A DNA stretch of 31,159 bases from an uncultured virus (IMG/VR IMGVR_UViG_3300033550_000001). Its lineage: Duplodnaviria > Heunggongvirae > Uroviricota > Caudoviricetes. The DNA is taken from the IMG/VR virus record IMGVR_UViG_3300033550_000001, one strand, 5' to 3'. The translations under genes were made by a program, and so were the position numbers. Numbering within the stretch: the first letter of the stretch is position 1; each line of letters begins with the position of its first letter. The notes below the pieces were generated by a model that saw only the letters and a list, made by a program, of their open reading frames with translations, did not search any database and was not told the origin of the DNA. Below are positions 10,522 through 31,159 of this stretch, piece after piece.

Positions 10522-10562
10522 ATGAATTAACTAAACCATAGGTTCTGCCGCTGCACAACCCC
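10522..10562 (-). promoter_or_regulatory. cassette promoter (TTGTGC-17-TTTAGT) with operator 10522-10539
   Basis: ATGAATTAACTAAACCAT. Confidence 0.7.
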
Positions 10563-11011
10563 TACGCGGCGAACCGGTAGCCGGCCTGCCCGCCCCGGGT
10601 GTCGTCGACCAGCACGCCCTCCGCCACCCGGGCCTTGAGCCACATATAGACCCACGGGCGGGACCGGCCGGTCATGGCGGGGATGTCCTTGAAGTGACGC
10701 GGCACCACCCGCTCGATGCCCCGGGCCCGGAGGGCGGCGAGCCGTTCGGCGGCGAGGCGTTCGGCTTCCACCCGCGTCGGCCGGGGACGGCTGTCCTCGT
10801 GCACCGTGTCCGGCGGCGCGGCGACGGCGGCCAGGCTTCCCGGACTGCGGCTCGCGGCGGCCTCCCGCCGGGCGAGACGGAGGGAGCCCTGAAGCATCCC
10901 GGGGACGACTTCCGAGGCGACTTCCAGGCTGTGCAGGACGCACAGCGGGACGGGCTTGAGGATGACGGGCGAGGCGTCGCAACGGGCGGCGCAGCGAGTG
11001 TTCCTGCTCAT
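10562..11011 (-). CDS. protein with N-terminal C/C/C/H finger and C-terminal TraB-like winged helix
   Basis: CAARC..LCVLH; FKDIPAMTGRSRPWVYMWL aligns with TraB LEDIPGLVGRSRGWVYDEL. Confidence 0.7.
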   Translation of the reverse strand: MSRNTRCAARCDASPVILKPVPLCVLHSLEVASEVVPGMLQGSLRLARREAAASRSPGSLAAVAAPPDTVHEDSRPRPTRVEAERLAAERLAALRARGIERVVPRHFKDIPAMTGRSRPWVYMWLKARVAEGVLVDDTRGGQAGYRFAA

Positions 11012-11042
11012 GTCAGTGATCCTTTGTCAGAGTTCCTTGGTC

Positions 11043-11275
11043 GTGTCGGCCGGCCGACAGGGCGAGAGAGAGACCCAAGGCCGGAGGTCGTTCGGCCGGT
11101 CGGCCGACAGCCGACTGACGCGCCCGGCACCGTCAGGCATGATCGCCGACTGACGGTGTGACGGGCCGACACAGTCAGTGTGCCCCACCGGATGACCCTC
11201 CGACACCTGTCTGACACACCGGCAAACGTCAGGGCGGGCACCCGGTTGACTGCCCCGGATACCCGCCCTGACGCG
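11043..11275. repeat. CCGAC/CTGAC-rich repeat array downstream of traB (clt candidate)
   Basis: Repeated GCCGACAG, CCGACTGACG, CTGAC and reverse complements; 12-bp inverted repeat CGTCAGGGCGGG/CCCGCCCTGACG. Confidence 0.55.
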
Positions 11276-11288
11276 GCGCCTCACGACC

Positions 11289-13292
11289 TCATCCCGCAGC
11301 GGCGGCCTCCGCGAACACGTTCCCCGTGATCTCGTAGACGGCCCGGGTGTTGGGCGGCGTGAGCCGGCGCAGCACGCCGTCGTCGGCCAGCCGCTCCAGC
11401 TCGTCGTACACCCACCCGCGCGACCGGCCGACCAGCCCCGGGATGTCCTCCAGGGCCTGGAACGTGACCTCGTGGTCCTCGCCGGACGCGAGGATGTTGA
11501 TGCGGTTCAGCAGCTCCGCCCGCGCGTCCTCGGTGGTCATCCGGCCCTCGTCCACGATGGGGTCGGCGAAGGTGAGGGACAGCCCGTCGGGGGCGGCCAG
11601 CGGCTCCCCCGTGTCGATTCCGTCGCTGGTCAGAGACATGTCCCGCACCTCCGTGAAGTCGTCGTCCACCGTGCTCTCCGCGACCGCCTGCGCGGCCGGG
11701 GACACCCGCTCGGGCTGCTCGTCGGCGATGCCCCGGGCGAGGATGCGGTACGTCCCCTCGTCCAGCTCCGCCCAGAACTGCCGCGAGGACTCCCGGGCCT
11801 CCTGCGTGTCCTTGGCGGTGCGCCTCGGCGCCCGGCCGTCGATGGGCCAGTGGGCCCGGTCCGTGCCCACGACCTCGGCATACAGGCTGCCGGGGCTGTC
11901 GTTGCGCCACTTCGTCGGGTCGGCGCCCGCCTCCAGCGTGTCCCGGTGCAGGGAGTACTTGGCGTCCTGGTCCTCGTTCTGGCCGTGGGCGACGGACTGC
12001 ACGAGGGCCGCCCGGGTCTTCCGGCTGATGTTGTCGTGCGGCATGGTCTGCATGGACAGGCAGATGTGGACACCGATGGACCGCAGCTTGCGCAGCAGCT
12101 CGTCCAGCTCCTCGTCCATCTCCACGGCGATGTCCGCCGCCTCCTCGATGTCCACGAACACCAGCGGGATGCGGTGCAGCGTCCACATCTCCGAGACCCA
12201 CTGCTTGTAGCCGACGCCGCCGTCTGCCCTGGTCAGCGAGGCGAACAGGCCCGACCGGTACCCGATGACCCGCTTGAGGTTGACGACCAGGGTCTTCACC
12301 TCGTCCTCGTCCTTGGCGGCCAGTCCCAGCATGTCCTCGACGTCGCCGAAAGACTGCTCGAACTTGGCCGGGTCGCCCACGATCGGCACGACGTCGATGC
12401 GTTCGCGCATCTGGAGGATCGCCGTGACCATCGTCTCCGTCTTGCCCGACCCGGAGACGCCTGTCCACTTCGTGTGCGCCAGCGGCCGGTCCGCCTCCGG
12501 GTCGCCGCACAGCCACCACTCGATGTCCGAGCCGTTGGTGCGCCCGCCCAGCCAGATGGGTGCGTCGGCGACGGACATCCCCCGGTGGTCCGGGCGGTTC
12601 GCCCAGGTCACGGGCTTGCTGGAACCCTGCTCACGGGTGAACGTGACGTCCACCTGCGACTCGTCGCCCTTGACCCGGAGCACCTTGACCTGGTCGGCGC
12701 CGACGCCGGCGACAGCCGCGATCTGCTCCCGGGCGTCCTGCGCCTCCTTCGCCGTGGTCGGCGCGTCCAGGTGGACCCGGGCGCGCAGCTCGTCGGCCGA
12801 CTCCTGCACCTTGCCGACCTTGGCGTCCTTGAACGCCCTGACCTTGGCCAGCAGGCCGTCGTTTCCGCTGGTCTGCTGCGACTTGTCGGTCTCCCGCACG
12901 CCGGACAGGGCCGCGTGGCGCACGCACCACGCGGCCGACAGCACGAGGCCGCCGAGCGCCCACGCGCGGAGGATGTCCTCCTGCCAGGGCCTGATCGCCA
13001 CGGCGAAAAGAGACCAGGTCAGGACGGCCGTGGCGAAGACCATGACCATGGTCCGGGTCTCCCGACGGCGCACTGCCCAGTTGGTCCAGGTCGCGTACGC
13101 CAGGTACCCGAAGCTGAGGGCGAGGAAGGCCGTCCACAGCTCGCTGTGACCGCTGGTGGCGATGACGATGTGGAGTACGAGGGACAGCGGCCAGACGGCC
13201 GCCACGACGGCCCACGGCAGGACGTACGAGACGATCCGCTCGGGCACGTTGAACAGGGCGTATCCCCGCACGCGGGGGGTGTGCTTGCTCAT
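11289..13292 (-). CDS. traB: TraB-like FtsK/SpoIIIE-family conjugative DNA translocase
   Basis: N-terminal TM helices, Walker A GVSGSGKT, Walker B VFVDIEEAA, LRSIGV..SMQ, C-terminal winged helix; start set at MSKH. Confidence 0.85.
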   Translation of the reverse strand: MSKHTPRVRGYALFNVPERIVSYVLPWAVVAAVWPLSLVLHIVIATSGHSELWTAFLALSFGYLAYATWTNWAVRRRETRTMVMVFATAVLTWSLFAVAIRPWQEDILRAWALGGLVLSAAWCVRHAALSGVRETDKSQQTSGNDGLLAKVRAFKDAKVGKVQESADELRARVHLDAPTTAKEAQDAREQIAAVAGVGADQVKVLRVKGDESQVDVTFTREQGSSKPVTWANRPDHRGMSVADAPIWLGGRTNGSDIEWWLCGDPEADRPLAHTKWTGVSGSGKTETMVTAILQMRERIDVVPIVGDPAKFEQSFGDVEDMLGLAAKDEDEVKTLVVNLKRVIGYRSGLFASLTRADGGVGYKQWVSEMWTLHRIPLVFVDIEEAADIAVEMDEELDELLRKLRSIGVHICLSMQTMPHDNISRKTRAALVQSVAHGQNEDQDAKYSLHRDTLEAGADPTKWRNDSPGSLYAEVVGTDRAHWPIDGRAPRRTAKDTQEARESSRQFWAELDEGTYRILARGIADEQPERVSPAAQAVAESTVDDDFTEVRDMSLTSDGIDTGEPLAAPDGLSLTFADPIVDEGRMTTEDARAELLNRINILASGEDHEVTFQALEDIPGLVGRSRGWVYDELERLADDGVLRRLTPPNTRAVYEITGNVFAEAAAAG

Positions 13293-13306
13293 GTCGTCCA
13301 CCGCCC

Positions 13307-13873
13307 TCACTGCACGGAGAAGCCGCCACGGCGGCCCCCGGGACGGTTCACCCTGCGGTCGGACTCCAGGTCGTCCAGCAGGCCCTCGAACCGGCGCCAC
13401 GCCTTGACCGCGTCGGCCGCGCCGGCGACGCAGGAGTTCGCCATGTGGTCCAGGTCCCGACCCACCTGCCGCAGCGTGAGCGCGAGCTTGGCCGCCTGCG
13501 CGGGGCTCATCCACCCGTCCTTGGCCTGCCGCGCGTTGGCCCGCGCGGACGCCTTGAGCTGGCCTTCCGCCATCTTCGCGCTGACGGCGAGGTAGTTCAG
13601 GATCGCCCGGTACGCCTCGCAGAAGGCGTGCAGGTCGTCCTGGTTCGACAACTCCATGGAGCCGATGGACTGCGCGAGCTGCGCAATGTTCTGACCCCTC
13701 GGCCCGCCGGGCCGGGACGCGCCCTGACCTGCGGACTTGCTCGTCTTCTCCGCCGGCGCCGGGTGCCCCTGGGAGTCCAGGCCCTGGCGGCGCAGCTCCT
13801 CGGCCGACTTGCCGTTGGCCCGGCCCCGCGCGCTGAACGGGTTGTCCGGGTGGTTCACTCCGATACGGCTCAT
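13307..13873 (-). CDS. traA: plasmid transfer protein TraA-like
   Basis: Gly-rich N-terminus, SNQDDLHAFCE, helical core; directly upstream of traB. Confidence 0.6.
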   Translation of the reverse strand: MSRIGVNHPDNPFSARGRANGKSAEELRRQGLDSQGHPAPAEKTSKSAGQGASRPGGPRGQNIAQLAQSIGSMELSNQDDLHAFCEAYRAILNYLAVSAKMAEGQLKASARANARQAKDGWMSPAQAAKLALTLRQVGRDLDHMANSCVAGAADAVKAWRRFEGLLDDLESDRRVNRPGGRRGGFSVQ

Positions 13874-13920
13874 GACTGAGTCCTCTTCCTGCTTCCTGAT
13901 TCCTGGGTCCGAAAGGGCGA

Positions 13921-13953
13921 AAGCCCTACCAGGGTCATCCCCGGTAGGGCTTT
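13921..13953 (-). terminator. hairpin terminator with overlapping degenerate operator (13947-13964)
   Basis: AAGCCCTACC...GGTAGGGCTT. Confidence 0.6.
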
Positions 13954-13975
13954 ACCTAAATCAAGCGTCTCGCGG

Positions 13976-15169
13976 TCAGTCCTTCGCCGCAAGTGCCTTC
14001 TCAGCGCGCTGGATCGCCTTCTTCAGGCTGTCCGGCTTGACGTCCTCGTAGCCCGGCAGGGTGGGGACGATGGCCCGGACCTCGTCCCGGCTGTGTCCCG
14101 TCTCCATGAGGAACCGGACGGCGGCCGACACGCTGCTCAGCTTGTCCTCGGGGACATCGACCTTGCTGTCCCGCGCGGGGGACACGGCCGGGGACACGGT
14201 GTCCCCCTCGGCCTTGATCTCCTCGGGCGTCTTGTCCACCCGGATGCGGACGGAGGGACGCGCGGGGGACACGGCGGGGACAGCCACGCGGGTGCGGGAC
14301 ACGACCGGCGGGACAGGCGCGGGGACAGCCGGCGCGGCGGGGGACATGTCCCCGGGGACAGGGGACACAGGGGCAACCGGGGCCGTGTCCCGGGGGACAA
14401 CCTGCGTGGGGGACATGTCCCCGGGGACGTCGTCCTGTCCCTTGTCCCGGGACACCAGGGACAGCGCCCAGTCGTGGCGCGCGTCGATGCCCGCCAGGTC
14501 CGTGACCGACTTGCGCCGGACGATCCGGGCGACGATGTCCGCCTCCGCCCGCGCGGCCTCGTCGGAGGACAGTCCGTGGCGGGCGGCGTCGATGGCGGTG
14601 GCCAGCTTGGCCGTCCGGCGGCGGTGGCGGATGGTGCCCGCCTTGACGGCGGCCACCTCGTCGGCGAGGTCCACCGCGCGGTCGGCGGCCCGGCTGCGGG
14701 CGATGGCGGCGGAGTCGGCGCCGCGCCGGCCGATGCCCAGGAAGGCCGTCAGGCGCTCCCGCAGCTCGCGCAGGGCGGACGCCAGCAGGCCGTTGGACTT
14801 CTCGCCGGACATCCGCAGCTCAAGGCCCAGAAGCAGGTGCAGCAGCACAGCCAGCAGCACCGGGCCGAGGACGACCCGGACGGGGCCGCCGACGCTGCCC
14901 GACACCTGGAAGGCGGGGATGGCCTGCACGAGGACTGCCGCGTAGGCGAGGTACGCCGGGCCCTTGGTCCGGGTGGCCCACGCGTACACCGTGAGGGCGA
15001 TAATGGCGGCCTCGGCGACGCCGCACAGCACGGCGCGTTCGGTCTGGTCGGAGATCTGGAGCGCCGTCTCCAGGAAGCGGTACGAGGTGTCGGCGGACAT
15101 GGCCAGGGCCAGGGCGGCCGGGACAAGCAGACCCAGCGTCGCAGCCGTGGTGCGGGACATGCGGGACAT
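13976..15169 (-). CDS. SpdB-like multi-pass membrane protein with repeat linker and helical C-terminal domain
   Basis: About 4 N-terminal hydrophobic segments, helical middle, VSP/GDT-rich linker; upstream of traA-traB. Confidence 0.7.
   Translation of the reverse strand: MSRMSRTTAATLGLLVPAALALAMSADTSYRFLETALQISDQTERAVLCGVAEAAIIALTVYAWATRTKGPAYLAYAAVLVQAIPAFQVSGSVGGPVRVVLGPVLLAVLLHLLLGLELRMSGEKSNGLLASALRELRERLTAFLGIGRRGADSAAIARSRAADRAVDLADEVAAVKAGTIRHRRRTAKLATAIDAARHGLSSDEAARAEADIVARIVRRKSVTDLAGIDARHDWALSLVSRDKGQDDVPGDMSPTQVVPRDTAPVAPVSPVPGDMSPAAPAVPAPVPPVVSRTRVAVPAVSPARPSVRIRVDKTPEEIKAEGDTVSPAVSPARDSKVDVPEDKLSSVSAAVRFLMETGHSRDEVRAIVPTLPGYEDVKPDSLKKAIQRAEKALAAKD
14094..14463. repeat. GGGACA/TGTCCC array inside the Spd-like gene
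   Basis: About 23 copies by hand count, both orientations; GGGGACATGTCCCC palindromes. Confidence 0.9.
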
Positions 15170-15240
15170 GGTCTGTCCTCTCTTCCTTGGTCAGGTTCCT
15201 TGGTCGGTGCTGATTTTCTTAAATCATCGTACACGCTATC

Positions 15241-15465
15241 TGTCCCCGTGTCCCCTGCCCCGGCAAACCTTTGTCCCGGGACATCACCACCCCGTGTCCC
15301 GAGGGGGACGTGTCCCCGTGTCCCGAGGGGACATGTCCCGGTGTCCCGGTGTCCCGGTGTCCCCGGGGACACGACAAAGCCCCTGCGGTTGTCCCGCAGG
15401 GGCCCTGTGTCCCTGTCCCCCTGTCCCGCCGTCAGGTGTCGTCCCTGTCCCCGGAGATGTCCCGG
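15241..15465. repeat. mostly intergenic TGTCCC array with 8-bp tandem period (clt/TRS-like)
   Basis: TGTCCCGG x3 plus TGTCCCCG at 15334-15365; about 19 hexamer copies. Confidence 0.9.
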
Positions 15466-15767
15466 CAGGGGCGGAAAGGGTCAAAGCCGTCGCACGGATG
15501 CTGGGGGCGGAACGGGTCGGCGCTCTGTACCCCCGAAGCCCTGTCCCGGTCGTCCGCCGTGACGATCTCGCTGAACCAGAAGTCGGTGATCTCGACGTCC
15601 CGCAGCTCCACACCCTCGGAGCGGGACACGTCCCGCGCGGCCTCCGCACGCAACCGCATCTCGTCGCACCGGGCGAGGGACCACGCCGTCCCGTCCAGCA
15701 CCTTGGCGTGTCCCCGGACGGTGGCTGTCCCGCCGTAGAAGTATCCGAACTTCAGCCGTCCGGTCAT
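15432..15767 (-). CDS. hypothetical protein
   Basis: MTGRLKFGYFYGG...; ATGA overlap; GGAG RBS. Confidence 0.6.
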   Translation of the reverse strand: MTGRLKFGYFYGGTATVRGHAKVLDGTAWSLARCDEMRLRAEAARDVSRSEGVELRDVEITDFWFSEIVTADDRDRASGVQSADPFRPQHPCDGFDPFRPCRDISGDRDDT

Positions 15768-16024
15768 CGCAAGATCTCCGATCCGGGCGCGACAGTCCAT
15801 GCGCGGACAGGGGAGCGGGGGACAGCGCGCAAGGCGCCTGTCCCCTGAAGGACGATCAGGTGATCCGTCACCCATGAGGCCGGGCGCCGGACTGCGGCGG
15901 CGAGGTCGGTGAAGTGTCCCGGGGTGAACTCCCGCACGCCCCGGTCGTGCAGGTCCCGTATGCGCTGCCGTACGGCGTCGGCGAGCGCGGGCGGTGAGCC
16001 GGTCGTGACTGTGGTGGTCGGCAC
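15764..16024 (-). CDS. small winged-helix protein resembling the TraB C-terminus
   Basis: GTG start behind GGAG; FTDLAAAVRRPASWVTDHLIVLQGTGALR. Confidence 0.6.
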   Translation of the reverse strand: MPTTTVTTGSPPALADAVRQRIRDLHDRGVREFTPGHFTDLAAAVRRPASWVTDHLIVLQGTGALRAVPRSPVRAWTVAPGSEILR

Positions 16025-16043
16025 GACGTTCTCCGTTCCGTGT

Positions 16044-16682
16044 TCAGATATGAAGGGGCAGGCCCTTGCCGGCGGTGTGTCCGCCGTGGACATTCCAGAT
16101 CCACGTCCGAGCGTTCAGGTGCTCGAACACGGCTCCGTCGTCCAGCAGACGCACCAGATAATCCTCGTCCTCGCCACGGTAGCGGCGGCCGACCCCTTCT
16201 GTCGTCACTTCCTGACCGGGACGAAAGCCGCCTACGGCACGGACCCGTTCCGTCCGTACCAGATGCGTCATCGGGATGAACGATCCGAGCCGGCGCAGAT
16301 GTGCCTCCTGTTCGGCTCCGAAACGCACGCCCCAGGGGGAGACCCACTGGCCCTGCACGGACACGGCCGTCGGGTCCGCGCCTCCGCGCACCACCGGCGC
16401 CGGGTAGACGAGGTCCGGCCGCTCGCGCGACTGCTCCATCACCCGCATGCACGCCATGAGGTGGTTGGGCTTCAGCTCGTCATCGTCGTCGAGCCAGGCC
16501 ACGACGTCGGCGGTGACGCGCTGAAGCGCCCGGTTCCGGGCCGCGTCGGCCCCGGTGCGCAGGCTGTCGCGTTCCACGACGACCTGGTCCGGCCGGCGGC
16601 GCTGCGCCCGTACGGAGGCCAGCGCGCGTTCCAGCATGGCCTCCCGCCCGGGGATTGTGGGGATGACGACGGCGACTGTCAT
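16044..16682 (-). CDS. glycosyltransferase family 2
   Basis: VAVVIPT, ARNRAL, VAWLDDDD, VGGF, EDEDY. Confidence 0.9.
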   Translation of the reverse strand: MTVAVVIPTIPGREAMLERALASVRAQRRRPDQVVVERDSLRTGADAARNRALQRVTADVVAWLDDDDELKPNHLMACMRVMEQSRERPDLVYPAPVVRGGADPTAVSVQGQWVSPWGVRFGAEQEAHLRRLGSFIPMTHLVRTERVRAVGGFRPGQEVTTEGVGRRYRGEDEDYLVRLLDDGAVFEHLNARTWIWNVHGGHTAGKGLPLHI

Positions 16683-23455: not shown

Positions 23456-26113
23456 TCATACCTGACGGTCGCGCTGCATGTAAGGGTCCAGCTTGCGGGA
23501 GGCGAGGGTGACCGCGAACAGGTCGCTGGCGAGGCCGGCCCGGATCTCCTCGGGCACGGTGTGCCCGGCGTAGCGGAGCATTCCGATCAACTTCGGAGAC
23601 GCCGGCTTCTTCCTCCACGCCGCCGTCCGGGTCATGTTGAGCGCGGACCGATCGGTGGCCTCGGTCTCCGCCCACGCCATGGCGATGCCGAGGTCCAGGC
23701 CCTCGTGCAGCCGCTCCCAGTTCCCGCTCGGCGGGGCGTAAGCGACGTCCCACTTCTCGGCGCCCTCGCGGGACGGCCACAGCAGGATCTCCCCGTTGTC
23801 GCCGAGCGGGATGAACTGGATTCCCGCTCGGGTGCGCAGCCACGAGTAGGCGGCCGACGCCTTGAACAGGTCGATGTCCCGGTGGGTCAGCGCGAACCGC
23901 AGCGAGCCGGCCGGAACGCGGGCGTCCTTGCTGGACTCCTCGCGCTCGTACGCCTCGGCCAGAGTCTCGCCGTCGGCCACCTCCCGGAGCTGCGCGCCCG
24001 GCTCCAGGTCGACCAGCGTGCACAGCGACCCGCCCTCGCCGGCGAGGATGAGCACCAGGGCGTCCTCCTTGCCGGTGGCCGGCGACGGCCGCAGCACCCG
24101 CCCCACCATCTGTATGAACAGCGGCTCGGACTTGGTCGGCCGGGCGATGACCGCGCAGTCTGCGAACGGGAAGTCGGCACCCTCGGTCAGCACCATGCAG
24201 TTGACCAATGTGCGGATCTCGCCGGTGCGGAACTTGCGGTAGATGTTCAGCCGCTCCTCGCGGGGCGTGCCGCCGTGCACGTACGCCGCGCTCGGCAGGG
24301 CCTCGGCCGTCTCCCGCGCGACCTCCACCGTCGGCGTGAACACGATGGGGGACCGGCGGTCGGCCGCGTGCTCCTCCAGCACCTTGGCGATGATCTGCGG
24401 GCCGCCCGCCTCCATCAGCGCGTCGCCCAGGGACGAGGCGGTGTAGTCGCCCCGGCTCCGCTTGACGTCCCCGAGGTGCAGGGTGTCCACGTCGATGAGC
24501 CGGGAGCGCACATCGGTGAGGTAGCCCCGGCTCATCGCCCACAGCGGGGAGCGCGTGTAGACGGCGTCCTCCCACACGTCCCCGAGACCCTGGCCGTCGC
24601 CCCGGGCGAGTGTCGCGGTGAAGCCGACGGCCTTGGTGCCGGGCATCCCGCTGTAGCAGCCGAGGGCGGCGAGGATGTTGCGGTAGCTGACGGCCGCCGC
24701 GTGATGGCATTCGTCAACAATGACCAGCCCGACCTTGCCGCACTTCTCCTGGCTGTCGAGCAGCCGGTGCAGCCGCTTCTCCCGAGCGAGGGTCTGCACC
24801 GAGCAGACCATGACGTCTGCGGCGATGTTGTCGTCCGCCGCCTTCACCTTGCCGGTGAACAGGGACGGCTCGGTCTGCTTCAGCTTGGACAGCGTCTGGT
24901 CGGCCAGCTCGTCGCGGTGCACGAGGATGACGACGCGCGTGCCCTCCGACTCGACGTGCTCGGCCGCCATGCGGGAGAACACGACAGTGTTGTGCGTGAC
25001 GATGTGGTGCCTCGTCACCTGGTACAGGCTGTCCGGCGCGGCCACCCGGATGCACCGGATCTCCTGGTCCTCCACTCGCTCCACGGCCACGATGGTGCGC
25101 CGGGGTTCGAACGTCCGGCGCGGTCCGCCGGCGCGGTTCTTCCTCGGGGTGGACAGAGCGGGTGCGTCAGAGGGCATGAGGATGTTGACCACTATGTTCT
25201 CGTAGTCCTCGCCGCTGGTCGGCTGAACCCGGTTGTAGCACCGCACGCTCGCGGTACCCCCGAGAGAGCAGACCAGTTCGCTCACGTCGTCCGCCAGTCG
25301 CGGCGAGGTGGTGTGGTAGCAGACCGCCCGGCGTTCTGCCCGACTGGAGCCGTCGTTGTCCATGAGGCCGTGCAGCAGGGCAAGTCGCTGCGCCGTCCCG
25401 GCCTCCAGGTACCGGCGCGGGATGAACTTGTCCGCGCTGGCCACGTCCAGACCCATCACACGGATGTGCTTCTGAACCCCTCGGACGATGAAGCGGGGGC
25501 ACCACTTCGTCTCGTCCACGGTCGCCCGGGTCACCTCGTGCTCCGCACGGACGCGTTCGGCCACGTGTTCGTCGGGCGTGGTCAGGACCGGGCTGGTGTG
25601 GCTCAGGTAGCCGTTGGCGAGCAGCGCCCCGAGCGTGTACGGGCCGATAGGGAGTTCCGCGTCGGGTGTGAGAGTGCCTGACACCGGGATGGCCCACCGG
25701 TTGGCCCGCCCGTGCTTCAATCCGTGGTCCGCTATCTCCGACGTGCTGAGCGTGCGAACCTCCCGGGACGTACGCCGGTGCGCGTGGTCCCGCACGGTCC
25801 ACAGGTGTTCCGCGTCCGTGACGACGGACGACCCGTCCCGGAAGGTCACACGGAACGCGGGCAGGACGCCACGGTCGTAGACGTCCACGACCTCGGTCGG
25901 GTGACCGTTGCTGCCGAACACGAGGTCCCCGGGCTCCAGGTCACCCCACTTGCGCAGACCGTCCGGGGTGGGAACTTCGGTGTTCAGTGGATGGCCTTTG
26001 CCCATGCCGGTCGCCAGCACGGCGGCCGGCCGCTGCATCCCGTCGGCCCACGCGGCGCGCACCGTGTCGATGCACTCGCGCTGGTACTCGCGCAGGGCCA
26101 GAGTCTGGCTCAT
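23456..26113 (-). CDS. SF2 (DExH) DNA helicase with intein
   Basis: LREYQ Q-motif, ATGMGK/T, IVDECHH, FTAT, LTEGAD, QMVGRVLR; start set at MSQT. Confidence 0.93.
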   Translation of the reverse strand: MSQTLALREYQRECIDTVRAAWADGMQRPAAVLATGMGKGHPLNTEVPTPDGLRKWGDLEPGDLVFGSNGHPTEVVDVYDRGVLPAFRVTFRDGSSVVTDAEHLWTVRDHAHRRTSREVRTLSTSEIADHGLKHGRANRWAIPVSGTLTPDAELPIGPYTLGALLANGYLSHTSPVLTTPDEHVAERVRAEHEVTRATVDETKWCPRFIVRGVQKHIRVMGLDVASADKFIPRRYLEAGTAQRLALLHGLMDNDGSSRAERRAVCYHTTSPRLADDVSELVCSLGGTASVRCYNRVQPTSGEDYENIVVNILMPSDAPALSTPRKNRAGGPRRTFEPRRTIVAVERVEDQEIRCIRVAAPDSLYQVTRHHIVTHNTVVFSRMAAEHVESEGTRVVILVHRDELADQTLSKLKQTEPSLFTGKVKAADDNIAADVMVCSVQTLAREKRLHRLLDSQEKCGKVGLVIVDECHHAAAVSYRNILAALGCYSGMPGTKAVGFTATLARGDGQGLGDVWEDAVYTRSPLWAMSRGYLTDVRSRLIDVDTLHLGDVKRSRGDYTASSLGDALMEAGGPQIIAKVLEEHAADRRSPIVFTPTVEVARETAEALPSAAYVHGGTPREERLNIYRKFRTGEIRTLVNCMVLTEGADFPFADCAVIARPTKSEPLFIQMVGRVLRPSPATGKEDALVLILAGEGGSLCTLVDLEPGAQLREVADGETLAEAYEREESSKDARVPAGSLRFALTHRDIDLFKASAAYSWLRTRAGIQFIPLGDNGEILLWPSREGAEKWDVAYAPPSGNWERLHEGLDLGIAMAWAETEATDRSALNMTRTAAWRKKPASPKLIGMLRYAGHTVPEEIRAGLASDLFAVTLASRKLDPYMQRDRQV
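24989..25996 (-). mobile_element. intein (336 aa) with LAGLIDADG domain in helicase Walker A
   Basis: GK|GHPLNTEVPTPDG ... IVTHN|T; LGALLANG and LHGLMDNDG. Confidence 0.9.
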
Positions 26114-26358
26114 CGGTCCCCCTCGTCGTTCCCGTCCAGCGCCCGCTCCAGCGCGCCGTAGCCCGGCCCCCGGCGCAGCCCGAGCAGCCGGTAAATTTCC
26201 GTGGCGTGCAGCATCCCGGACCGGGGGTCCGACGGAACCGGGTACGCCTCTTCCTTGCCGCACTGCTCCAACAGCCGGTCCACCACGCGGCGCAGGTCCG
26301 TCTCGGACAGGGCCAGCGCCCGGGCCCGCAGCTCGTGGTTGTAGTCCTCCGCACTCAT
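26110..26358 (-). CDS. hypothetical protein
   Basis: MSAEDYNHEL...; ATGA overlaps at both ends. Confidence 0.7.
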   Translation of the reverse strand: MSAEDYNHELRARALALSETDLRRVVDRLLEQCGKEEAYPVPSDPRSGMLHATEIYRLLGLRRGPGYGALERALDGNDEGDR

Positions 26359-26663
26359 GCGGCCTTCGTCCCCTCGTACTCCGCCACGGCGCGGTCCCAC
26401 GCGATGCGGGCCGGCTCGTCGGCGAACCGGGGGTCGGCACCGTGACGCGCGATCAGGTGCTCCCACAGGTCGGCGAAGTGCTCGCCGTCCCCGAGGCCGT
26501 CGCAGCGCACCGTCCACCAGCAGCTCGGGCAGTCGGCGTGCGGGCCGGTGGAGTGGGCCGCCGCGCGGCGCAGGCGCCCGAGGTAGTCCACCAGTTCCAC
26601 GTCGTCCACGTCGGAGCCGAACAGGTTGAGCGCCGCCCCGTAGGCGGTCTGTTCCGTGGTCAT
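26355..26663 (-). CDS. hypothetical protein with C2H2-like residues
   Basis: GGGAGG RBS; CPSC..C...H....H. Confidence 0.65.
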   Translation of the reverse strand: MTTEQTAYGAALNLFGSDVDDVELVDYLGRLRRAAAHSTGPHADCPSCWWTVRCDGLGDGEHFADLWEHLIARHGADPRFADEPARIAWDRAVAEYEGTKAA

Positions 26664-27074: not shown

Positions 27075-27550
27075 TGGCGCCGCCGGTCATCAAGGCGATA
27101 GAGACCGAGGCGTTCGGCTGCAAGTTCCGCTCCCGCACCGAGGCCCGGTTCGCCACGTTCTGCGACGCGGCCGGCGTCCCGTGGGAGTACGAGCCCGAGG
27201 GCTACAGGCTGGCCAGCGGCTGGTACCTGCCGGACTTCCGCATCCGGCCCGAATGGGCCCCTGACCAGGTGTGGGTGGAGATTAAGCCGCCCAGCGATAC
27301 ATTCGACGATCCACGCTGGGCGGAGCTGGCCGAGGGGAGCGGGCTGATCGTCCTCGTGCTGCGTGGCCTGCACCGGCGGGGCGACACCTGCGGGCGCGAC
27401 CACATGGTGCGCTTCTGGCACCCGGAGGGCGTCGTGGCAGACGTCCCCCGGATGTGGACCGGACAGCGGTTCGCACCGGCGTGGGACGCCGCCTCGGCGG
27501 CCCGGTTCGACCGCCGCGCGCCCGCCGGCCGGAAGGGGAGGAGAACGTAA
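27074..27550 (+). CDS. PD-(D/E)XK endonuclease
   Basis: FRSRTEARFA, WEYEPEG, YLPDF, VEIKP; TGATG coupling. Confidence 0.8.
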   Translation: MAPPVIKAIETEAFGCKFRSRTEARFATFCDAAGVPWEYEPEGYRLASGWYLPDFRIRPEWAPDQVWVEIKPPSDTFDDPRWAELAEGSGLIVLVLRGLHRRGDTCGRDHMVRFWHPEGVVADVPRMWTGQRFAPAWDAASAARFDRRAPAGRKGRRT

Positions 27551-27606
27551 GTGCCCACGCCCCAGCAGACCAAGGAAGCACGGACCAAGGAATCGAGGAA
27601 CCACCG

Positions 27607-30600
27607 ATGACCACGTACGTGGACACGAACGCGGGGCAGGTGTCGGACCACCACCTGGCGGAGCTGGACGCCAGCGAGATCGCCCCGGAGCACCGCGAGG
27701 CACGCGGGTACGAGACGCTGTACGGCACCGACGAGGACCGCGCGAGGCTGCGCGAGGAGTCCATCCCGGTGTGGGCCTGGCGCGAGGACACGGCCTTCCC
27801 CGGACTGTTCATCCCGATGTACCGGGTGACCGGCGAGCGGATCGGCGCGCAGTTCAAGCCCGGCCAGCCGCAGCCGAACAGCAACGGCAGCGAGAGCAAG
27901 CCGGTGAAATACGCCACCCCCAAGGGCACCAAGCCGCGCCTGGACGTCCCGCCGCTCATGGCGACAGCCGTCCGCGCCGGGGCCGCCCCGTTGTGGATCA
28001 CTGAGGGTGTGAAGAAGGCCGACTCGCTCGCCTCCAAGGGCCTCGCGGCCATCGCGCTCTCGGGCGTCTACAACTGGCGCAGCCGGCTGGGCACGCTCGG
28101 CGACTGGGAGGACATCCCGCTCAAGGGCCGGGTCGTGGTGATCTGTTTCGACTCCGACGCCCGGCACAACTCCAACGTGCTGAACGCGATGCGCCGGCTC
28201 GGCATGTGGCTGGAGTCCAAGGGCGCCGCCGACATCCGGTACCTGATCGTTCCGCAAGAGGTCGACGGGACCGCCGTCAAGGGCGTGGACGACTACTTCC
28301 ACGCGGGCGGCACGCTGGAGGGCCTGCGGGACGCGGCCACCTCCGAGATGCCTTCGGACAACAACCGCGACGCCGCGTTCAGTGACGCGGTCCTCGCCGA
28401 CACGGTGTGCTCCGACGTCCTGGAGGGCCATTACCGGTGGGCCGCCGGTCTCGGGTGGATGCGCTGGGACGGCAAGGTGTGGACCGAGTGCACCGACGCC
28501 ACGGTGATGGAGGAGATCCGACTGTGGGCCCTGGCCGGCTTCCAGCGGGTGCTGGAGAAGTGGCGCGCGGAGCCGAACAAGGACTTCCGTACCGAGCAGG
28601 AGGGGTGGCGCGGGGCCCTCGCCGCGTCCAAGCTGGGCAACCTGCTCAAGCTGTCCAGGGGCATCCTGGAGTCGGCCGCGACGGACTTCGACTACGACCC
28701 TGACGCGCTCAACTGCCAGAACGGCATCCTGGACCTGAAGACCGGCGTCCTCACCCCGCACGACCCGGACCGGCTGATGACGAAGATCACCGGCTGCGAC
28801 TACGTCCCCGCGACGTTCCACCCGGACTGGAAGCAGGCGCTGGAGGCGGTACCGGCGGCCGTGCTGGACTGGTTCCAGATGCGCATGGGCCAGTCCATCA
28901 CCGGCCACACCCCGCCGGACGACCTGATCCTGATCCTCCAGGGCGGCGGGTCCAACGGGAAGGCGCTGGACACCGACACGCCGATGCTCACCGCCAACCG
29001 TGGCTGGACAACCATGGGCGACCTCGTGGCCGGTGACGAGGTGTACGGCCCGGACGGGCAGCCCACAAAGGTCACGCACGCGTTCGACGTCCTGCACGGA
29101 CGCCGCTGCTACCGGGTGACCACGACCGACGGACGGTCCGTCGTGGCTGACGCGGACCACCTGTGGACCGTCCGGCTGAGCAAGGGGACGAGCAAGCTCA
29201 ACAGGCCACGGTGGGTCACGCTGACCACCGAACAGATGGTCCAGCGGGGCGTCTACGCCCGTACGGGAGGGGGCCGCGCGGGGCTTCGGTTCCGGCTGCC
29301 CGAACAGCAGCCGATCCAGTCCAAGCCAGTTGATCTGCCGTTTGACCCCTACGTGCTCGGTGCCTGGCTGGGGGACGGGGAGAGCGCGGGTAACCGCCTC
29401 ACCTGCCACCCCGACGACGTTCAGATCGTCGAGGAGATCCGGGCAGCCGGCATCCCGGTGCGAAGGCAGAACACCCCGTACGCGTGGGCTCTCGGGGACG
29501 GGGGCGGTCGTGGCAAGCGCAACGGCCAGTCCATCACCGAACAGCTCCGGTCCCTGGGCGTGCTGAACAACAAGCACATCCCGGAGCAGTACCTGGCCGG
29601 GTCCCAGGAGCAGCGCCTGGCGCTGCTTCAGGGACTCATGGACACCGACGGCTTCGCGTCTGCGGGGCAGGGTCAGGCCGTGTTCACGTCCACCCGCAAG
29701 TGTCTGGCAGACGGGGTGCTGTACCTGGCGCGGTCGCTGGGGTGGAAGGCGACGGTAAAGGAGTCCGTGGCGACCCTGAAAGGCGTTGCCGTCGGTCCGA
29801 AGTGGATGGTCACGTGGACGCCGGGTCCTGATGGGTTGAACCCCTTCCGGCTGGCCCGCAAGGCCGGCCGCATCAGCGCCTCCCGCCCGCGCGTGCGCAC
29901 CTCGGCGCCGAGCATCGCGGCCATCGAGAGGGTGGACTCCAGGCCGGTGCGCTGCATCACTGTGGACCGCGAGGACGCCCTGTACCTCGCCGGCCGGGAC
30001 CTGGTCCCCACGCACAACTCTACCGTCATGGACGCCATCGCCAAGTCGGCCGGCAAGCGCGGCGGCTACCACACGGCTGTCGCCGACCGGGCGCTGCTCG
30101 GCAACGCGAGCGACAACCACCCCACCGAGATGATGGACTTCATGGGCGCTCGCCTCGCGGTGCTGGAGGAGACACCGGAGGCCAAGCGCCTGGACGTCAA
30201 CCGGGCGAAAAAGTTGGCGGGCACCGACCAGATCACGGCCCGCAAGATGCGGCAGGACAGCGTCACCTTCTCCACGACGCACACGCTGATCATCAACACG
30301 AACCACAAGCCGCTGGTGGAGGAGTCCGATCACGGCACGTGGCGCCGGCTGGCCATGCTCGTCTTCCCGTACAAGTACTGCAAGCCGTGGGAGGCGTGCA
30401 CGGGGCCCAACGACCGGCCGGGGGACCTGAACCTGCGCCAGCGGGTGAAGACCGACGAGCGGGTCACTGAGGCCGTCCTGGCGTGGCTGGTGGACGGGGC
30501 CCGCAAGTGGTACGCGGCCGACATGATCCTGCCCCCGCCGCCGGCGGAAGTGGCGGAGGCCACCCTGGAGTGGCGCCGGGAGTCGGACCTGGTGCTGTCC

Positions 30601-31159
30601 TTCATCGGGGACGTCCTGGAGTTCGACTGGGACTCCCACATCTACGCCCCGGAGCTGCGCGAGGCGTTCAACAAGTACCTGGCCGACAAGGGCCACCGGG
30701 AGTGGACGGACAGGACGTTCACCGCCCGATTCGGAAGCCACGACGAGTGCTCGCGGAACGGGGTCGCCCGGAAGCGGATCAAGACCCGCGAAGGGCGGTC
30801 CACGCTGGACCCGGGGCTCGCCGTACCCAATCCGTACTACGCGTGGCTGGGAATCCGGTTCCAGGACCCGAACGGAAACGGCCAGCTCAGCGAGGGTGAG
30901 GACAACCCGGTACCGTCGGTACCCTCTTCTCCCGTTAACAATGAAATCGGCCCTCGTATAGGAGGAACAGGAGAACACGGTACCGACGGTACCGGCCCTC
31001 GAACCGCCCCCGGAGGGGACCCTTTCGGAGGTGATCCGTTCGCGGAAGCGGAAGCCGATCACGCGCCCGTGGCCACCGTCCCCGCCCCGTCCCCGCCGCC
31101 GGCCGCCGAGACCGTGCCCCCGCGCGCCGGCGGCGGGGACGGGGCGGGGACGGTGGCCA
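27607..31159 (+). CDS. DUF3854 (Toprim-like) primase / D5-P4-type SF3 helicase with intein; 3' end beyond window
   Basis: Manual translation: WITEGVKKAD, ICFDSD, KGVDDY, LNCQNGILDL, GGGSNGK/S, NTNHKP, GTWRR; no stop seen; doubled GACCAAGGAA motif upstream. Confidence 0.9.
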   Translation, partial: MTTYVDTNAGQVSDHHLAELDASEIAPEHREARGYETLYGTDEDRARLREESIPVWAWREDTAFPGLFIPMYRVTGERIGAQFKPGQPQPNSNGSESKPVKYATPKGTKPRLDVPPLMATAVRAGAAPLWITEGVKKADSLASKGLAAIALSGVYNWRSRLGTLGDWEDIPLKGRVVVICFDSDARHNSNVLNAMRRLGMWLESKGAADIRYLIVPQEVDGTAVKGVDDYFHAGGTLEGLRDAATSEMPSDNNRDAAFSDAVLADTVCSDVLEGHYRWAAGLGWMRWDGKVWTECTDATVMEEIRLWALAGFQRVLEKWRAEPNKDFRTEQEGWRGALAASKLGNLLKLSRGILESAATDFDYDPDALNCQNGILDLKTGVLTPHDPDRLMTKITGCDYVPATFHPDWKQALEAVPAAVLDWFQMRMGQSITGHTPPDDLILILQGGGSNGKALDTDTPMLTANRGWTTMGDLVAGDEVYGPDGQPTKVTHAFDVLHGRRCYRVTTTDGRSVVADADHLWTVRLSKGTSKLNRPRWVTLTTEQMVQRGVYARTGGGRAGLRFRLPEQQPIQSKPVDLPFDPYVLGAWLGDGESAGNRLTCHPDDVQIVEEIRAAGIPVRRQNTPYAWALGDGGGRGKRNGQSITEQLRSLGVLNNKHIPEQYLAGSQEQRLALLQGLMDTDGFASAGQGQAVFTSTRKCLADGVLYLARSLGWKATVKESVATLKGVAVGPKWMVTWTPGPDGLNPFRLARKAGRISASRPRVRTSAPSIAAIERVDSRPVRCITVDREDALYLAGRDLVPTHNSTVMDAIAKSAGKRGGYHTAVADRALLGNASDNHPTEMMDFMGARLAVLEETPEAKRLDVNRAKKLAGTDQITARKMRQDSVTFSTTHTLIINTNHKPLVEESDHGTWRRLAMLVFPYKYCKPWEACTGPNDRPGDLNLRQRVKTDERVTEAVLAWLVDGARKWYAADMILPPPPAEVAEATLEWRRESDLVLSFIGDVLEFDWDSHIYAPELREAFNKYLADKGHREWTDRTFTARFGSHDECSRNGVARKRIKTREGRSTLDPGLAVPNPYYAWLGIRFQDPNGNGQLSEGEDNPVPSVPSSPVNNEIGPRIGGTGEHGTDGTGPRTAPGGDPFGGDPFAEAEADHAPVATVPAPSPPPAAETVPPRAGGGDGAGTVA
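28963..30018 (+). mobile_element. intein (352 aa) with LAGLIDADG homing endonuclease in primase-helicase Walker A
   Basis: GK|ALDTDTPMLT ... VPTHN|S; LGAWLGDG and LQGLMDTDG. Confidence 0.92.
30907..30995. repeat. 17-bp perfect inverted repeat flanking an AT-richer core (putative origin)
   Basis: CCGGTACCGTCGGTACC ... GGTACCGACGGTACCGG. Confidence 0.8.

Follow-up and report, generated by a model that had tools for sequence, protein, structure and literature searches.

Free-standing relatives of the TraB winged helix beside short-repeat arrays in a Streptomyces phage-plasmid

INTRODUCTION

Conjugation in Streptomyces is held to need only the DNA pump TraB and its docking site clt, with a GntR-type repressor as the control. 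Here we describe a stretch of 31,159 nucleotides (nt) from a Streptomyces phage-plasmid (the window; IMG/VR record IMGVR_UViG_3300033550_000001) with a high GC content (about 0.67-0.75), in which the DNA-reading head of TraB, a winged helix, is encoded at the end of the pump gene and again in two small separate genes, the open reading frames ORF149 and ORF86. An earlier reading of the window from its sequence alone had pointed out these heads and two nearby arrays of short repeats, and it had suggested that the motor-less heads could control the loading of TraB.

Several described systems can be compared with this locus. The closest are the TraB/clt systems of the Streptomyces plasmids pSVH1 and pWTY27, which share with the window an FtsK-like pump that ends in a winged helix and whose gene is followed at once by short direct repeats and inverted repeats (PMC3583192, PMC5133688). 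The pWTY27 clt extends from the final 16 bp of the tra gene over a further 159 bp, contains four TGACACC repeats as well as CCCGCCC repeats and inverted repeats, and is footprinted by the TraB homologue; the tra gene and clt are sufficient for high-frequency transfer (PMC3583192). In pSVH1, the 8-bp TraB recognition sequence (TRS) is GACCCGGA (PMC5133688). The window differs from these plasmids in that the head exists two to three more times as small separate proteins, there are two further dense fields of the word GGGACA, and the host is a phage-plasmid. Its TraB is also distant from theirs, with at most 27% identity to named plasmid TraBs and a score of 292 bits on the family model NF041214 (plasmid_TraB, 639 positions), under the 800-bit cut-off.

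The FtsK gamma domain, which reads the words called KOPS, is likewise a winged helix that ends a hexameric double-stranded DNA pump, recognizes 8-bp words, and directs loading; the resemblance of TraB to FtsK is noted in PMC4447253 and PMC3583192. A different group of small proteins, SpdA and SpdA2 with their sps palindrome (pIJ101, pSVH1, and pJV1), resembles ORF149 in size (117-163 aa) and in having a zinc-finger-like N-terminus; these proteins are encoded next to traB in some plasmids and bind repeats in or beside their own gene (PMC4170104). Unlike the heads described here, SpdA carries its DNA-binding part at the N-terminus, and neither the 12-bp palindrome nor the SRDD motif is present in our case. 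Finally, ICP1 Odn (Gp88) is a T5orf172 nuclease whose DNA-binding domain was copied from the origin-binding protein of its target (PMC8263062). Among the papers listed by our literature searches on TraB with clt/TRS, on TraB with winged helix-turn-helix domains, and on stand-alone FtsK gamma domains, none described free-standing TraB heads, and no natural free-standing gamma paralogue was among those listed for the last topic.

RESULTS AND DISCUSSION

Two motor-less paralogues of the TraB winged helix

The pump gene and the two small genes are all encoded on the minus strand of the window:

11289..13292, minus strand: TraB, 667 aa when started at the ATG at 13292, FtsK-like DNA translocase ending in a winged helix (NF041214, E 7.7e-87)
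10562..11011, minus strand: ORF149, 149 aa, with an N-terminal Cys-rich module that appears zinc-ribbon-like, a linker, and a TraB-type winged helix (NF041214, hhalign, AlphaFold2)
15764..16024, minus strand: ORF86, 86 aa with a GTG start, consisting of a free-standing and diverged winged helix of TraB type (NF041214, hhalign, AlphaFold2)

Both ORF149 and ORF86 are genuine genes under selection, and each encodes a paralogue of the TraB reading head without a motor. The window TraB matches NF041214 over its whole length, and its start at 13292 corresponds to the annotated start in the related element pS1D4-14.2. Residues 70-146 of ORF149 match positions 557-631 of the same model (E 1.7e-9). These are head positions only, and the P-loop motor and membrane part of TraB/FtsK-SpoIIIE proteins were found in neither ORF149 nor ORF86. 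A direct BLASTP comparison of TraB with ORF149 gave 15/33 identical residues (E 6e-6). The 86-aa form of ORF86 is entry P0010 of the public protein collection; read from the ATG at 16093, the protein has 109 aa, and residues 31-93 of this longer form match NF041214 positions 564-626 only (E 0.0021). BLASTP of TraB against ORF86 was not significant (best E 2.8), and ORF149 and ORF86 align with 15/46 identical residues (E 1e-5).

Comparison of profiles ties all three heads together. A profile of 10 TraB C-termini aligned with the ORF149 family at 99.1% probability (E 6.6e-19, 65 columns) and with the ORF86 family at 95.0% (E 3.7e-8, 54 columns), and the ORF149 and ORF86 families aligned with each other at 93.3% (E 2.8e-7). 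Thus, the three TraB-type winged helices that the sequence-only reading had aligned by eye, two of them without a motor, are borne out by NF041214, BLASTP, and hhalign.

Structure prediction, another check that had been proposed, gave a helix-strand-helix-helix-wing order in both models. The AlphaFold2 model of ORF149 has a mean predicted local distance difference test score (pLDDT) of 79.4, with residue blocks across 80-149 scoring 89-97, and places helices at 80-96, 104-114, and 118-130, a strand after the first of these, and two wing strands at the end. The corresponding model of ORF86 (mean pLDDT 81.4) has helices at 11-27, 35-44, and 49-62, again with a strand after the first helix and two wing strands. 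The expectation that these proteins fold like the TraB gamma domain therefore holds for the winged-helix fold, but a specific likeness to FtsK gamma did not emerge: a profile search against solved structures returned nothing below E 0.03, and no FtsK gamma domain is among the fold matches listed. At the start of the recognition helix, ORF149 (GRSRPW) shares a GRSRxW motif with most TraBs, and the ORF86 family has RRPASW or GRPAAW.

The N-terminus of ORF149 is of a different kind. Residues C7, C11, and C24 are invariant in the family and position 27 is H or C, a pattern that we read as a zinc-ribbon-like module; this part is of lower confidence in the AlphaFold2 model. A look-up of the N-terminus in the Atlas gave no score of 0.9 or more. 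Furthermore, ORF149 has no Pfam match and hence no T5orf172 domain (PF10544/PF13455). Its identification as an SpdA2 homologue was considered and rejected, with a best BLASTP E of 18 against pIJ101 SpdA2 and no SRDD/E motif.

Conservation was assessed with six related elements: the window, pS1D4-14.2 (NZ_CP041606, a linear plasmid of 98.8 kb according to its deposit), the 93.5-kb IMG/VR record G002, and the Streptomyces genome contigs L016, L017, and L018. The related elements span about 77-99 kb. The synteny check around TraB that had been called for gave a clear outcome, with the gene order HTH87-GT215-ORF86-ORF112-[GGGACA array]-spd-traA-traB-[hairpin and CTGAC array]-ORF149-ORF139 retained in 6/6 elements, the GGGACA array itself being absent in pS1D4-14.2. 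ORF149 is of coding type, with a GC content at third codon positions (GC3) of 0.90 and nine homologue clusters. ORF86 has a GC3 of 0.80, a clean coding frame pattern at 15860-16039, and six family members or clusters. In the closest pair (L017-L018), the ratio of nonsynonymous to synonymous substitution rates (dN/dS) is 0.25 for ORF149 and 0.22 for ORF86; for the TraB head, the ratio is 0.27-0.58. Conservation thus extends to both stand-alone genes, and with dN/dS below 1 they are judged to be under purifying selection. In 4/5 comparisons, no other gene of the module has diverged as far as ORF149, with 36-47% identity versus 56-91% for its neighbours.

A fourth head-bearing gene of about 154-167 aa, which we call X4, is present between ORF112 and the GGGACA field in L017, L018, and pS1D4-14.2:

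L018 10679-11155, L017 about 10692-11155, and L006 4742-5280: X4, which ends in a TraB-type head

The X4 protein in G007 matches NF041214 positions 558-635 (E 4.1e-5).

Short-repeat arrays around the transfer genes

The repeats occupy one site downstream of traB and two sites upstream of and within the spd-like gene:

11012..11288, no strand: CTGAC/CCGACA array, candidate clt, 277 nt, between traB and ORF149
11227..11273, no strand: 19-nt inverted repeat with a GGGCGGG/CCCGCCC stem, directly 3' of the traB stop (fold -50.1 kcal/mol, z -4.3)
15241..15463, no strand: GGGACA array between genes, with 16 of its 19 copies reading TGTCCC on the plus strand (counts and Tandem Repeats Finder)
14094-14463, no strand: second GGGACA cluster, 23 copies, inside the spd-like gene, running across a Pro/Val/Ser-rich linker
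13976..15169, minus strand: spd-like membrane protein gene, 397 aa, containing the second GGGACA cluster
15432..15767, minus strand: ORF112, conserved gene, GC3 0.89, with homologues in all five other elements
15212..15254, minus strand: putative promoter of the spd-traA-traB operon (box by pattern search, hexamers by eye)

Both arrays that had been seen by eye proved to be non-random. GGGACA occurs 69 times on either strand of the window, and 52 of these copies fall within 2 kb, at 14001-16000. In the 277-nt spacer between traB and ORF149, 0.64 CTGAC and 0.26 CCGACA words are expected, and 9 (Poisson 2.7e-8) and 5 (8e-6) are found, respectively. The stem of the inverted repeat in this spacer is invariant across the six elements, and the repeat could be a terminator, a part of clt, or both. 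Tandem Repeats Finder reported a period of 8 with 7.2 copies at 15309-15365, within the intergenic GGGACA array. This array is present in 5/6 related elements with 19-23 copies, and the cluster inside spd is retained in 5/6 as well. The two fields are mostly opposite in orientation (15/23 copies read GGGACA on the plus strand at 14094-14463, and 16/19 read TGTCCC on the plus strand at 15241-15463), and they therefore converge on the 5' half of spd. In pS1D4-14.2 (L001 9380-10420), spd has undergone a rearrangement in its 3' half: where the GGGACA cluster would be, there are CGAAAG repeats (11 in 400 nt), and an ORF identified by eye as HNH/endonuclease-VII-like is inserted.

The sequence-only reading had placed one stand-alone head next to each array. 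For ORF149 this is accurate, since the gene directly follows the CTGAC/CCGACA array, but ORF86 is separated from the GGGACA array by ORF112. The pairing of ORF86 with GGGACA is further weakened by two elements. In G002, the ORF86 homologue (L007 5292-5456) has an in-frame deletion of the helix-turn-helix that leaves 47 aa, and a third match to the TraB model is missing, yet the two fields keep about 19 and 22 GGGACA words. In pS1D4-14.2, ORF86 and ORF149 are present and both GGGACA fields are absent.

The intergenic array also reaches the putative promoter of the spd-traA-traB operon. On the minus strand, a GATTT-N4-AAATC box (15212-15225) adjoins a -10-like hexamer TACGAT (15226-15231), and a GGGACA word (15249-15254) lies at the -35 position, with a 17-nt spacer to TACGAT as judged by eye. 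A strict sigma-70 scan found no promoter here. This arrangement bears on a first alternative, in which the heads are ordinary repressors that replace the GntR-type TraR/KorA and provide kil-override of a lethal traB operon, with the GGGACA field as operator and no direct interplay with TraB at clt. TraR and KorA belong to a different fold family, and their expected role of keeping traB expression non-lethal would be the same (PMC4447253). Published work describes TraR as a product of conjugative Streptomyces plasmids and the general kil-override partner of traB, a gene that is toxic in its absence (PMC4447253). A GntR domain was found in 0/4 records of the element family, two of them rated 100% complete, so some other regulator is needed. 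The best fold matches of the heads are, moreover, to repressor families (ArsR/SmtB, Fur, and DtxR). We nevertheless consider repression of this kind rather unlikely. G002 has the arrays without the ORF86 helix-turn-helix and pS1D4-14.2 has ORF86 and ORF149 without the arrays, and 42 GGGACA words in two fields are far beyond what an operator needs. In an unrelated Streptomyces contig (G047:C104, see below), a stand-alone head occurs alongside a GntR-like ORF (seen by eye, unscanned), and the separate GATTT-N4-AAATC box that is common to all operons of the element could serve a global repressor.

The position of the arrays, which flank and enter the spd gene, would also suit centromere-like adaptors for intramycelial spread or segregation, with the heads coating the repeat fields and passing DNA to the Spd/TraB complex at septa. 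The centromere binders AspA and TubR are among the weak fold matches of ORF149 (E 0.019-0.07). A precedent would be pIJ101 SpdA2, a small DNA-binding protein with repeats in its own gene that affects plasmid stability (PMC4170104). However, these fold matches are of a generic kind, SpdA2 and ORF149 are not similar in sequence, and no partner ATPase was identified near the head genes. We regard a centromere-like function as very unlikely.

Free-standing heads in other elements

The layout of traB, a CTGAC-type array, and a stand-alone winged helix recurs in pCQ3 and in G047:C104, and an ORF149-type head directly follows a clt-like array in eight examined elements. The pCQ3 TraB reaches 850 bits on NF041214, six CTGAC words are found in 182 nt, and the downstream gene matches NF041214 positions 562-636 (E 3e-10). 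In G047:C104, about 11 TGACACC words separate traB from the stand-alone head (GACAC 11 versus 0.48 expected), and this 142-aa head matches its own TraB (E 2e-6). The Cys module is absent from the pCQ3 and G047 heads, and therefore more than one kind of N-terminus has been joined to a free head behind clt, whether by separate origin or by rebuilding. A further homologue is carried on NC_019307. G047:C104 also has a second dense array (L052 about 13700-14100), located 3.7 kb downstream of its stand-alone head gene, with about 13 copies of CCGCTAC(A) within 300 nt; these repeats may be replication iterons.

Larger collections were searched for relatives of the stand-alone genes. In PLSDB, tblastn found pS1D4-14.2 as the sole match for both ORF149 and ORF86, and no locus with an ORF149 relative was confirmed in the genome_contigs and metagenome_contigs sets. 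A profile search of 1.84 billion representative proteins with ORF149 gave 46 matches, 41 of which fit the TraB model on rescanning. Of these, 15 extend into motor positions and are TraBs or TraB fragments. The other 26 fit only the last ~100 positions of the model and are 63-290 aa long, where some of the shortest may be cut gene calls. Some matches, of 243-290 aa, have both the N-terminal Cys module and the winged helix, and a T5orf172/MUG113 domain is located between these two parts in 7/17 matches scanned against Pfam. The head of one T5orf172-type protein, P0027, is 67% identical to the window TraB head (56/84, E 1e-33).

These longer proteins suggest a second alternative, namely that a mobile endonuclease of the T5orf172 (GIY-YIG-like) type took a TraB head to target clt, and that ORF149 is a sibling or relic of it without the nuclease, now either a decayed remnant or an immunity factor masking its own clt. 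The nucleases with a TraB head would then serve conflicts between related phage-plasmids. The Cys module and winged helix are indeed shared with the 243-290 aa proteins, and ORF149 evolves fast. ICP1 Odn is a precedent, in that P0027-type relatives follow the same logic with a TraB head (PMC8263062); ORF149 itself differs from Odn in lacking a nuclease domain. Against this origin, ORF149 has a fixed position and length class in 6/6 elements and a dN/dS down to 0.25, and therefore a decaying relic does not fit. In addition, loci L019-L021, which were fetched with P0027, hold T5orf172 homologues only, with no TraB nearby, and the pCQ3 and G047 heads are without the Cys module. We judge a nuclease ancestry of this sort to be decidedly unlikely.

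The likelier clt and a proposed role for the heads

The array after traB adjoins the 3' end of the pump gene and combines direct and inverted repeats, as does the pWTY27 clt, and its CTGAC(A/G) words are close to the TGACACC of that plasmid (PMC3583192). Because position and word type are as in pWTY27, and because the layout recurs in G047:C104 and pCQ3, we take this array to be the likelier clt, at which TraB would dock. CTGAC is enriched in 7/8 of the spacers downstream of traB that were examined, including those of pCQ3 and G047:C104. The exception is G002, which has CACGGAC-type words instead, and in which the TraB recognition helix WVYDELERL is changed to WVYKQLERL. A comparison of the window with pS1D4-14.2 shows conservation of the TraB head and of the array that follows traB, whereas the GGGACA arrays are not conserved. 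CCGACA words are found only in the two elements with the 149-aa allele of ORF149.

Our best guess gives ORF149 and ORF86 an accessory part, in which they would read GACA-type words and thereby tune the loading of TraB or the expression of the transfer genes. The absence of a GntR domain from the 4 records scanned, which calls for a regulator of another kind, is in line with this. In the version that we tentatively prefer, ORF149 would bind GAC(A)-type words in or beside the array after traB, the likelier clt. Binding would regulate expression of ORF149 itself and would restrict, or set the timing of, TraB hexamer loading at clt, making ORF149 an accessory regulator and not a part of the pump. 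ORF86 would be a second, more diverged, and dispensable reader in the upstream operon. The GGGACA field, which overlaps the -35 region of the spd-traA-traB promoter and recurs in spd, would most likely be an operator or a second docking field. The control layer on TraB loading that the sequence-only reading had imagined fits the position of ORF149 directly after a clt-like array. A complex prediction for TraB residues 190-667 with ORF149, run without controls, scored 0.00 ("no answer") and speaks neither for nor against binding.

Several observations weigh against this proposal. The pWTY27 tra gene and clt suffice for high-frequency transfer (PMC3583192), and therefore a downstream reader can be at most accessory. 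The GGGACA field is a rival candidate and could itself be clt, because its GGGACACC and CCGGGAC words resemble both TGACACC of pWTY27 (PMC3583192) and GACCCGGA of pSVH1 (PMC5133688). The recognition helix of ORF149 is most altered in pS1D4-14.2 (MWLKAR to MVLGTL), the sole element without GGGACA arrays, and from this coincidence ORF149 could read GGGACA instead. The covariation of heads and arrays amounts to very few independent events among six elements, partly conflicting, and therefore no array can be paired with any head confidently. Fold searches returned generic winged-helix proteins only, with best Foldseek E values of 0.019 (ORF149) and 0.0027 and VIA Z scores up to 9.0 for Fur, AF1382, Z-alpha, and DtxR-type domains. 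Stand-alone heads are also rare: among 401 Streptomycetaceae genomes, 56 had a match, and of the 67 matched places, 64 were TraB ends with frame lengths of 667-1104 aa and the remaining 3 belonged to short frames, counts that are a lower bound because the first look used a stricter setting. Support from our analysis goes to homology, fold, conservation, the non-random arrays, and the recurrent layout, and from these points onward we infer every pairing of protein with DNA and every effect on transfer.

A broader version would turn the paralogous heads into an address code, in which TraB, ORF149, ORF86, and X4 each read one xxGACA word (CTGACA/G, CCGACA, or GGGACA). Those heads that have no motor would control the place and time of pump loading and would set compatibility or immunity between competing phage-plasmids, the T5orf172-plus-head siblings would be weapons aimed at a rival clt, and the fast evolution of ORF149 and the array would reflect an arms race over the transfer origin. 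We offer this scheme as a long shot.

Free-standing pump heads encoded next to the site where TraB docks would amount to another kind of control, which might act by competition, by helping loading, or by immunity. The heads sit in a phage-plasmid without the usual repressor, and they come with natural specificity variants and matching arrays. The recognition code of winged helices of the TraB/FtsK-gamma type is therefore directly testable by swapping heads and words. The nuclease-bearing relatives suggest transfer origins as targets in conflicts between mobile elements.

Other features of the module and the element

The remaining features of the module are as follows:

13307..13873, minus strand: TraA-like gene, 188 aa (NF041213 plasmid_TraA, E 1.4e-4, under the family cut-off; syntenic in all relatives)
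15376..15410, minus strand: strong hairpin 3' of ORF112, within the array (fold of 15370-15420 on the minus strand, -32.1 kcal/mol, z -4.9; kept in relatives)
2321, 4008, 8255, 13949, 15212, 17224, 18214, 19957, and 23444, no strand: GATTT-N4-AAATC boxes (pattern search)

ORF112 had no family match in the profile-library scans. Its ATG overlaps the stop codon of ORF86 as ATGA, its 3' end enters the GGGACA array, and the hairpin that follows it is likely a terminator. The GATTT-N4-AAATC box, with up to one mismatch, has nine sites in the window versus 0.04 expected. Each copy is just upstream of a gene or operon start and beside a TACGAT-like hexamer, and the box is probably an element-wide promoter or operator.

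Assignment of the host element relied on three long records (G002, G003, which is pS1D4-14.2, and G004). Terminase_6C was above its cut-off in 3/3 of these and a tape-measure domain was found in 1/3, which therefore places them in a phage-plasmid family. Phage_capsid (PF05065) and TerL_ATPase (PF03354) were each found in 0/3 records; a plain-plasmid reading based on this result was dropped in view of the Terminase_6C and tape-measure matches. All three elements, whose records describe them as plasmid or virus, combine a TraB module with Terminase_6C.

The window also encodes a helicase and a primase in large ORFs at 23456-26452 and 27286-31158. These ORFs give weak matches to intein-containing models (E 1e-3 to 1.6e-5) and to PHROG 'terminase' families, a pattern that suggests intein or Hint insertions in both of these replication proteins.

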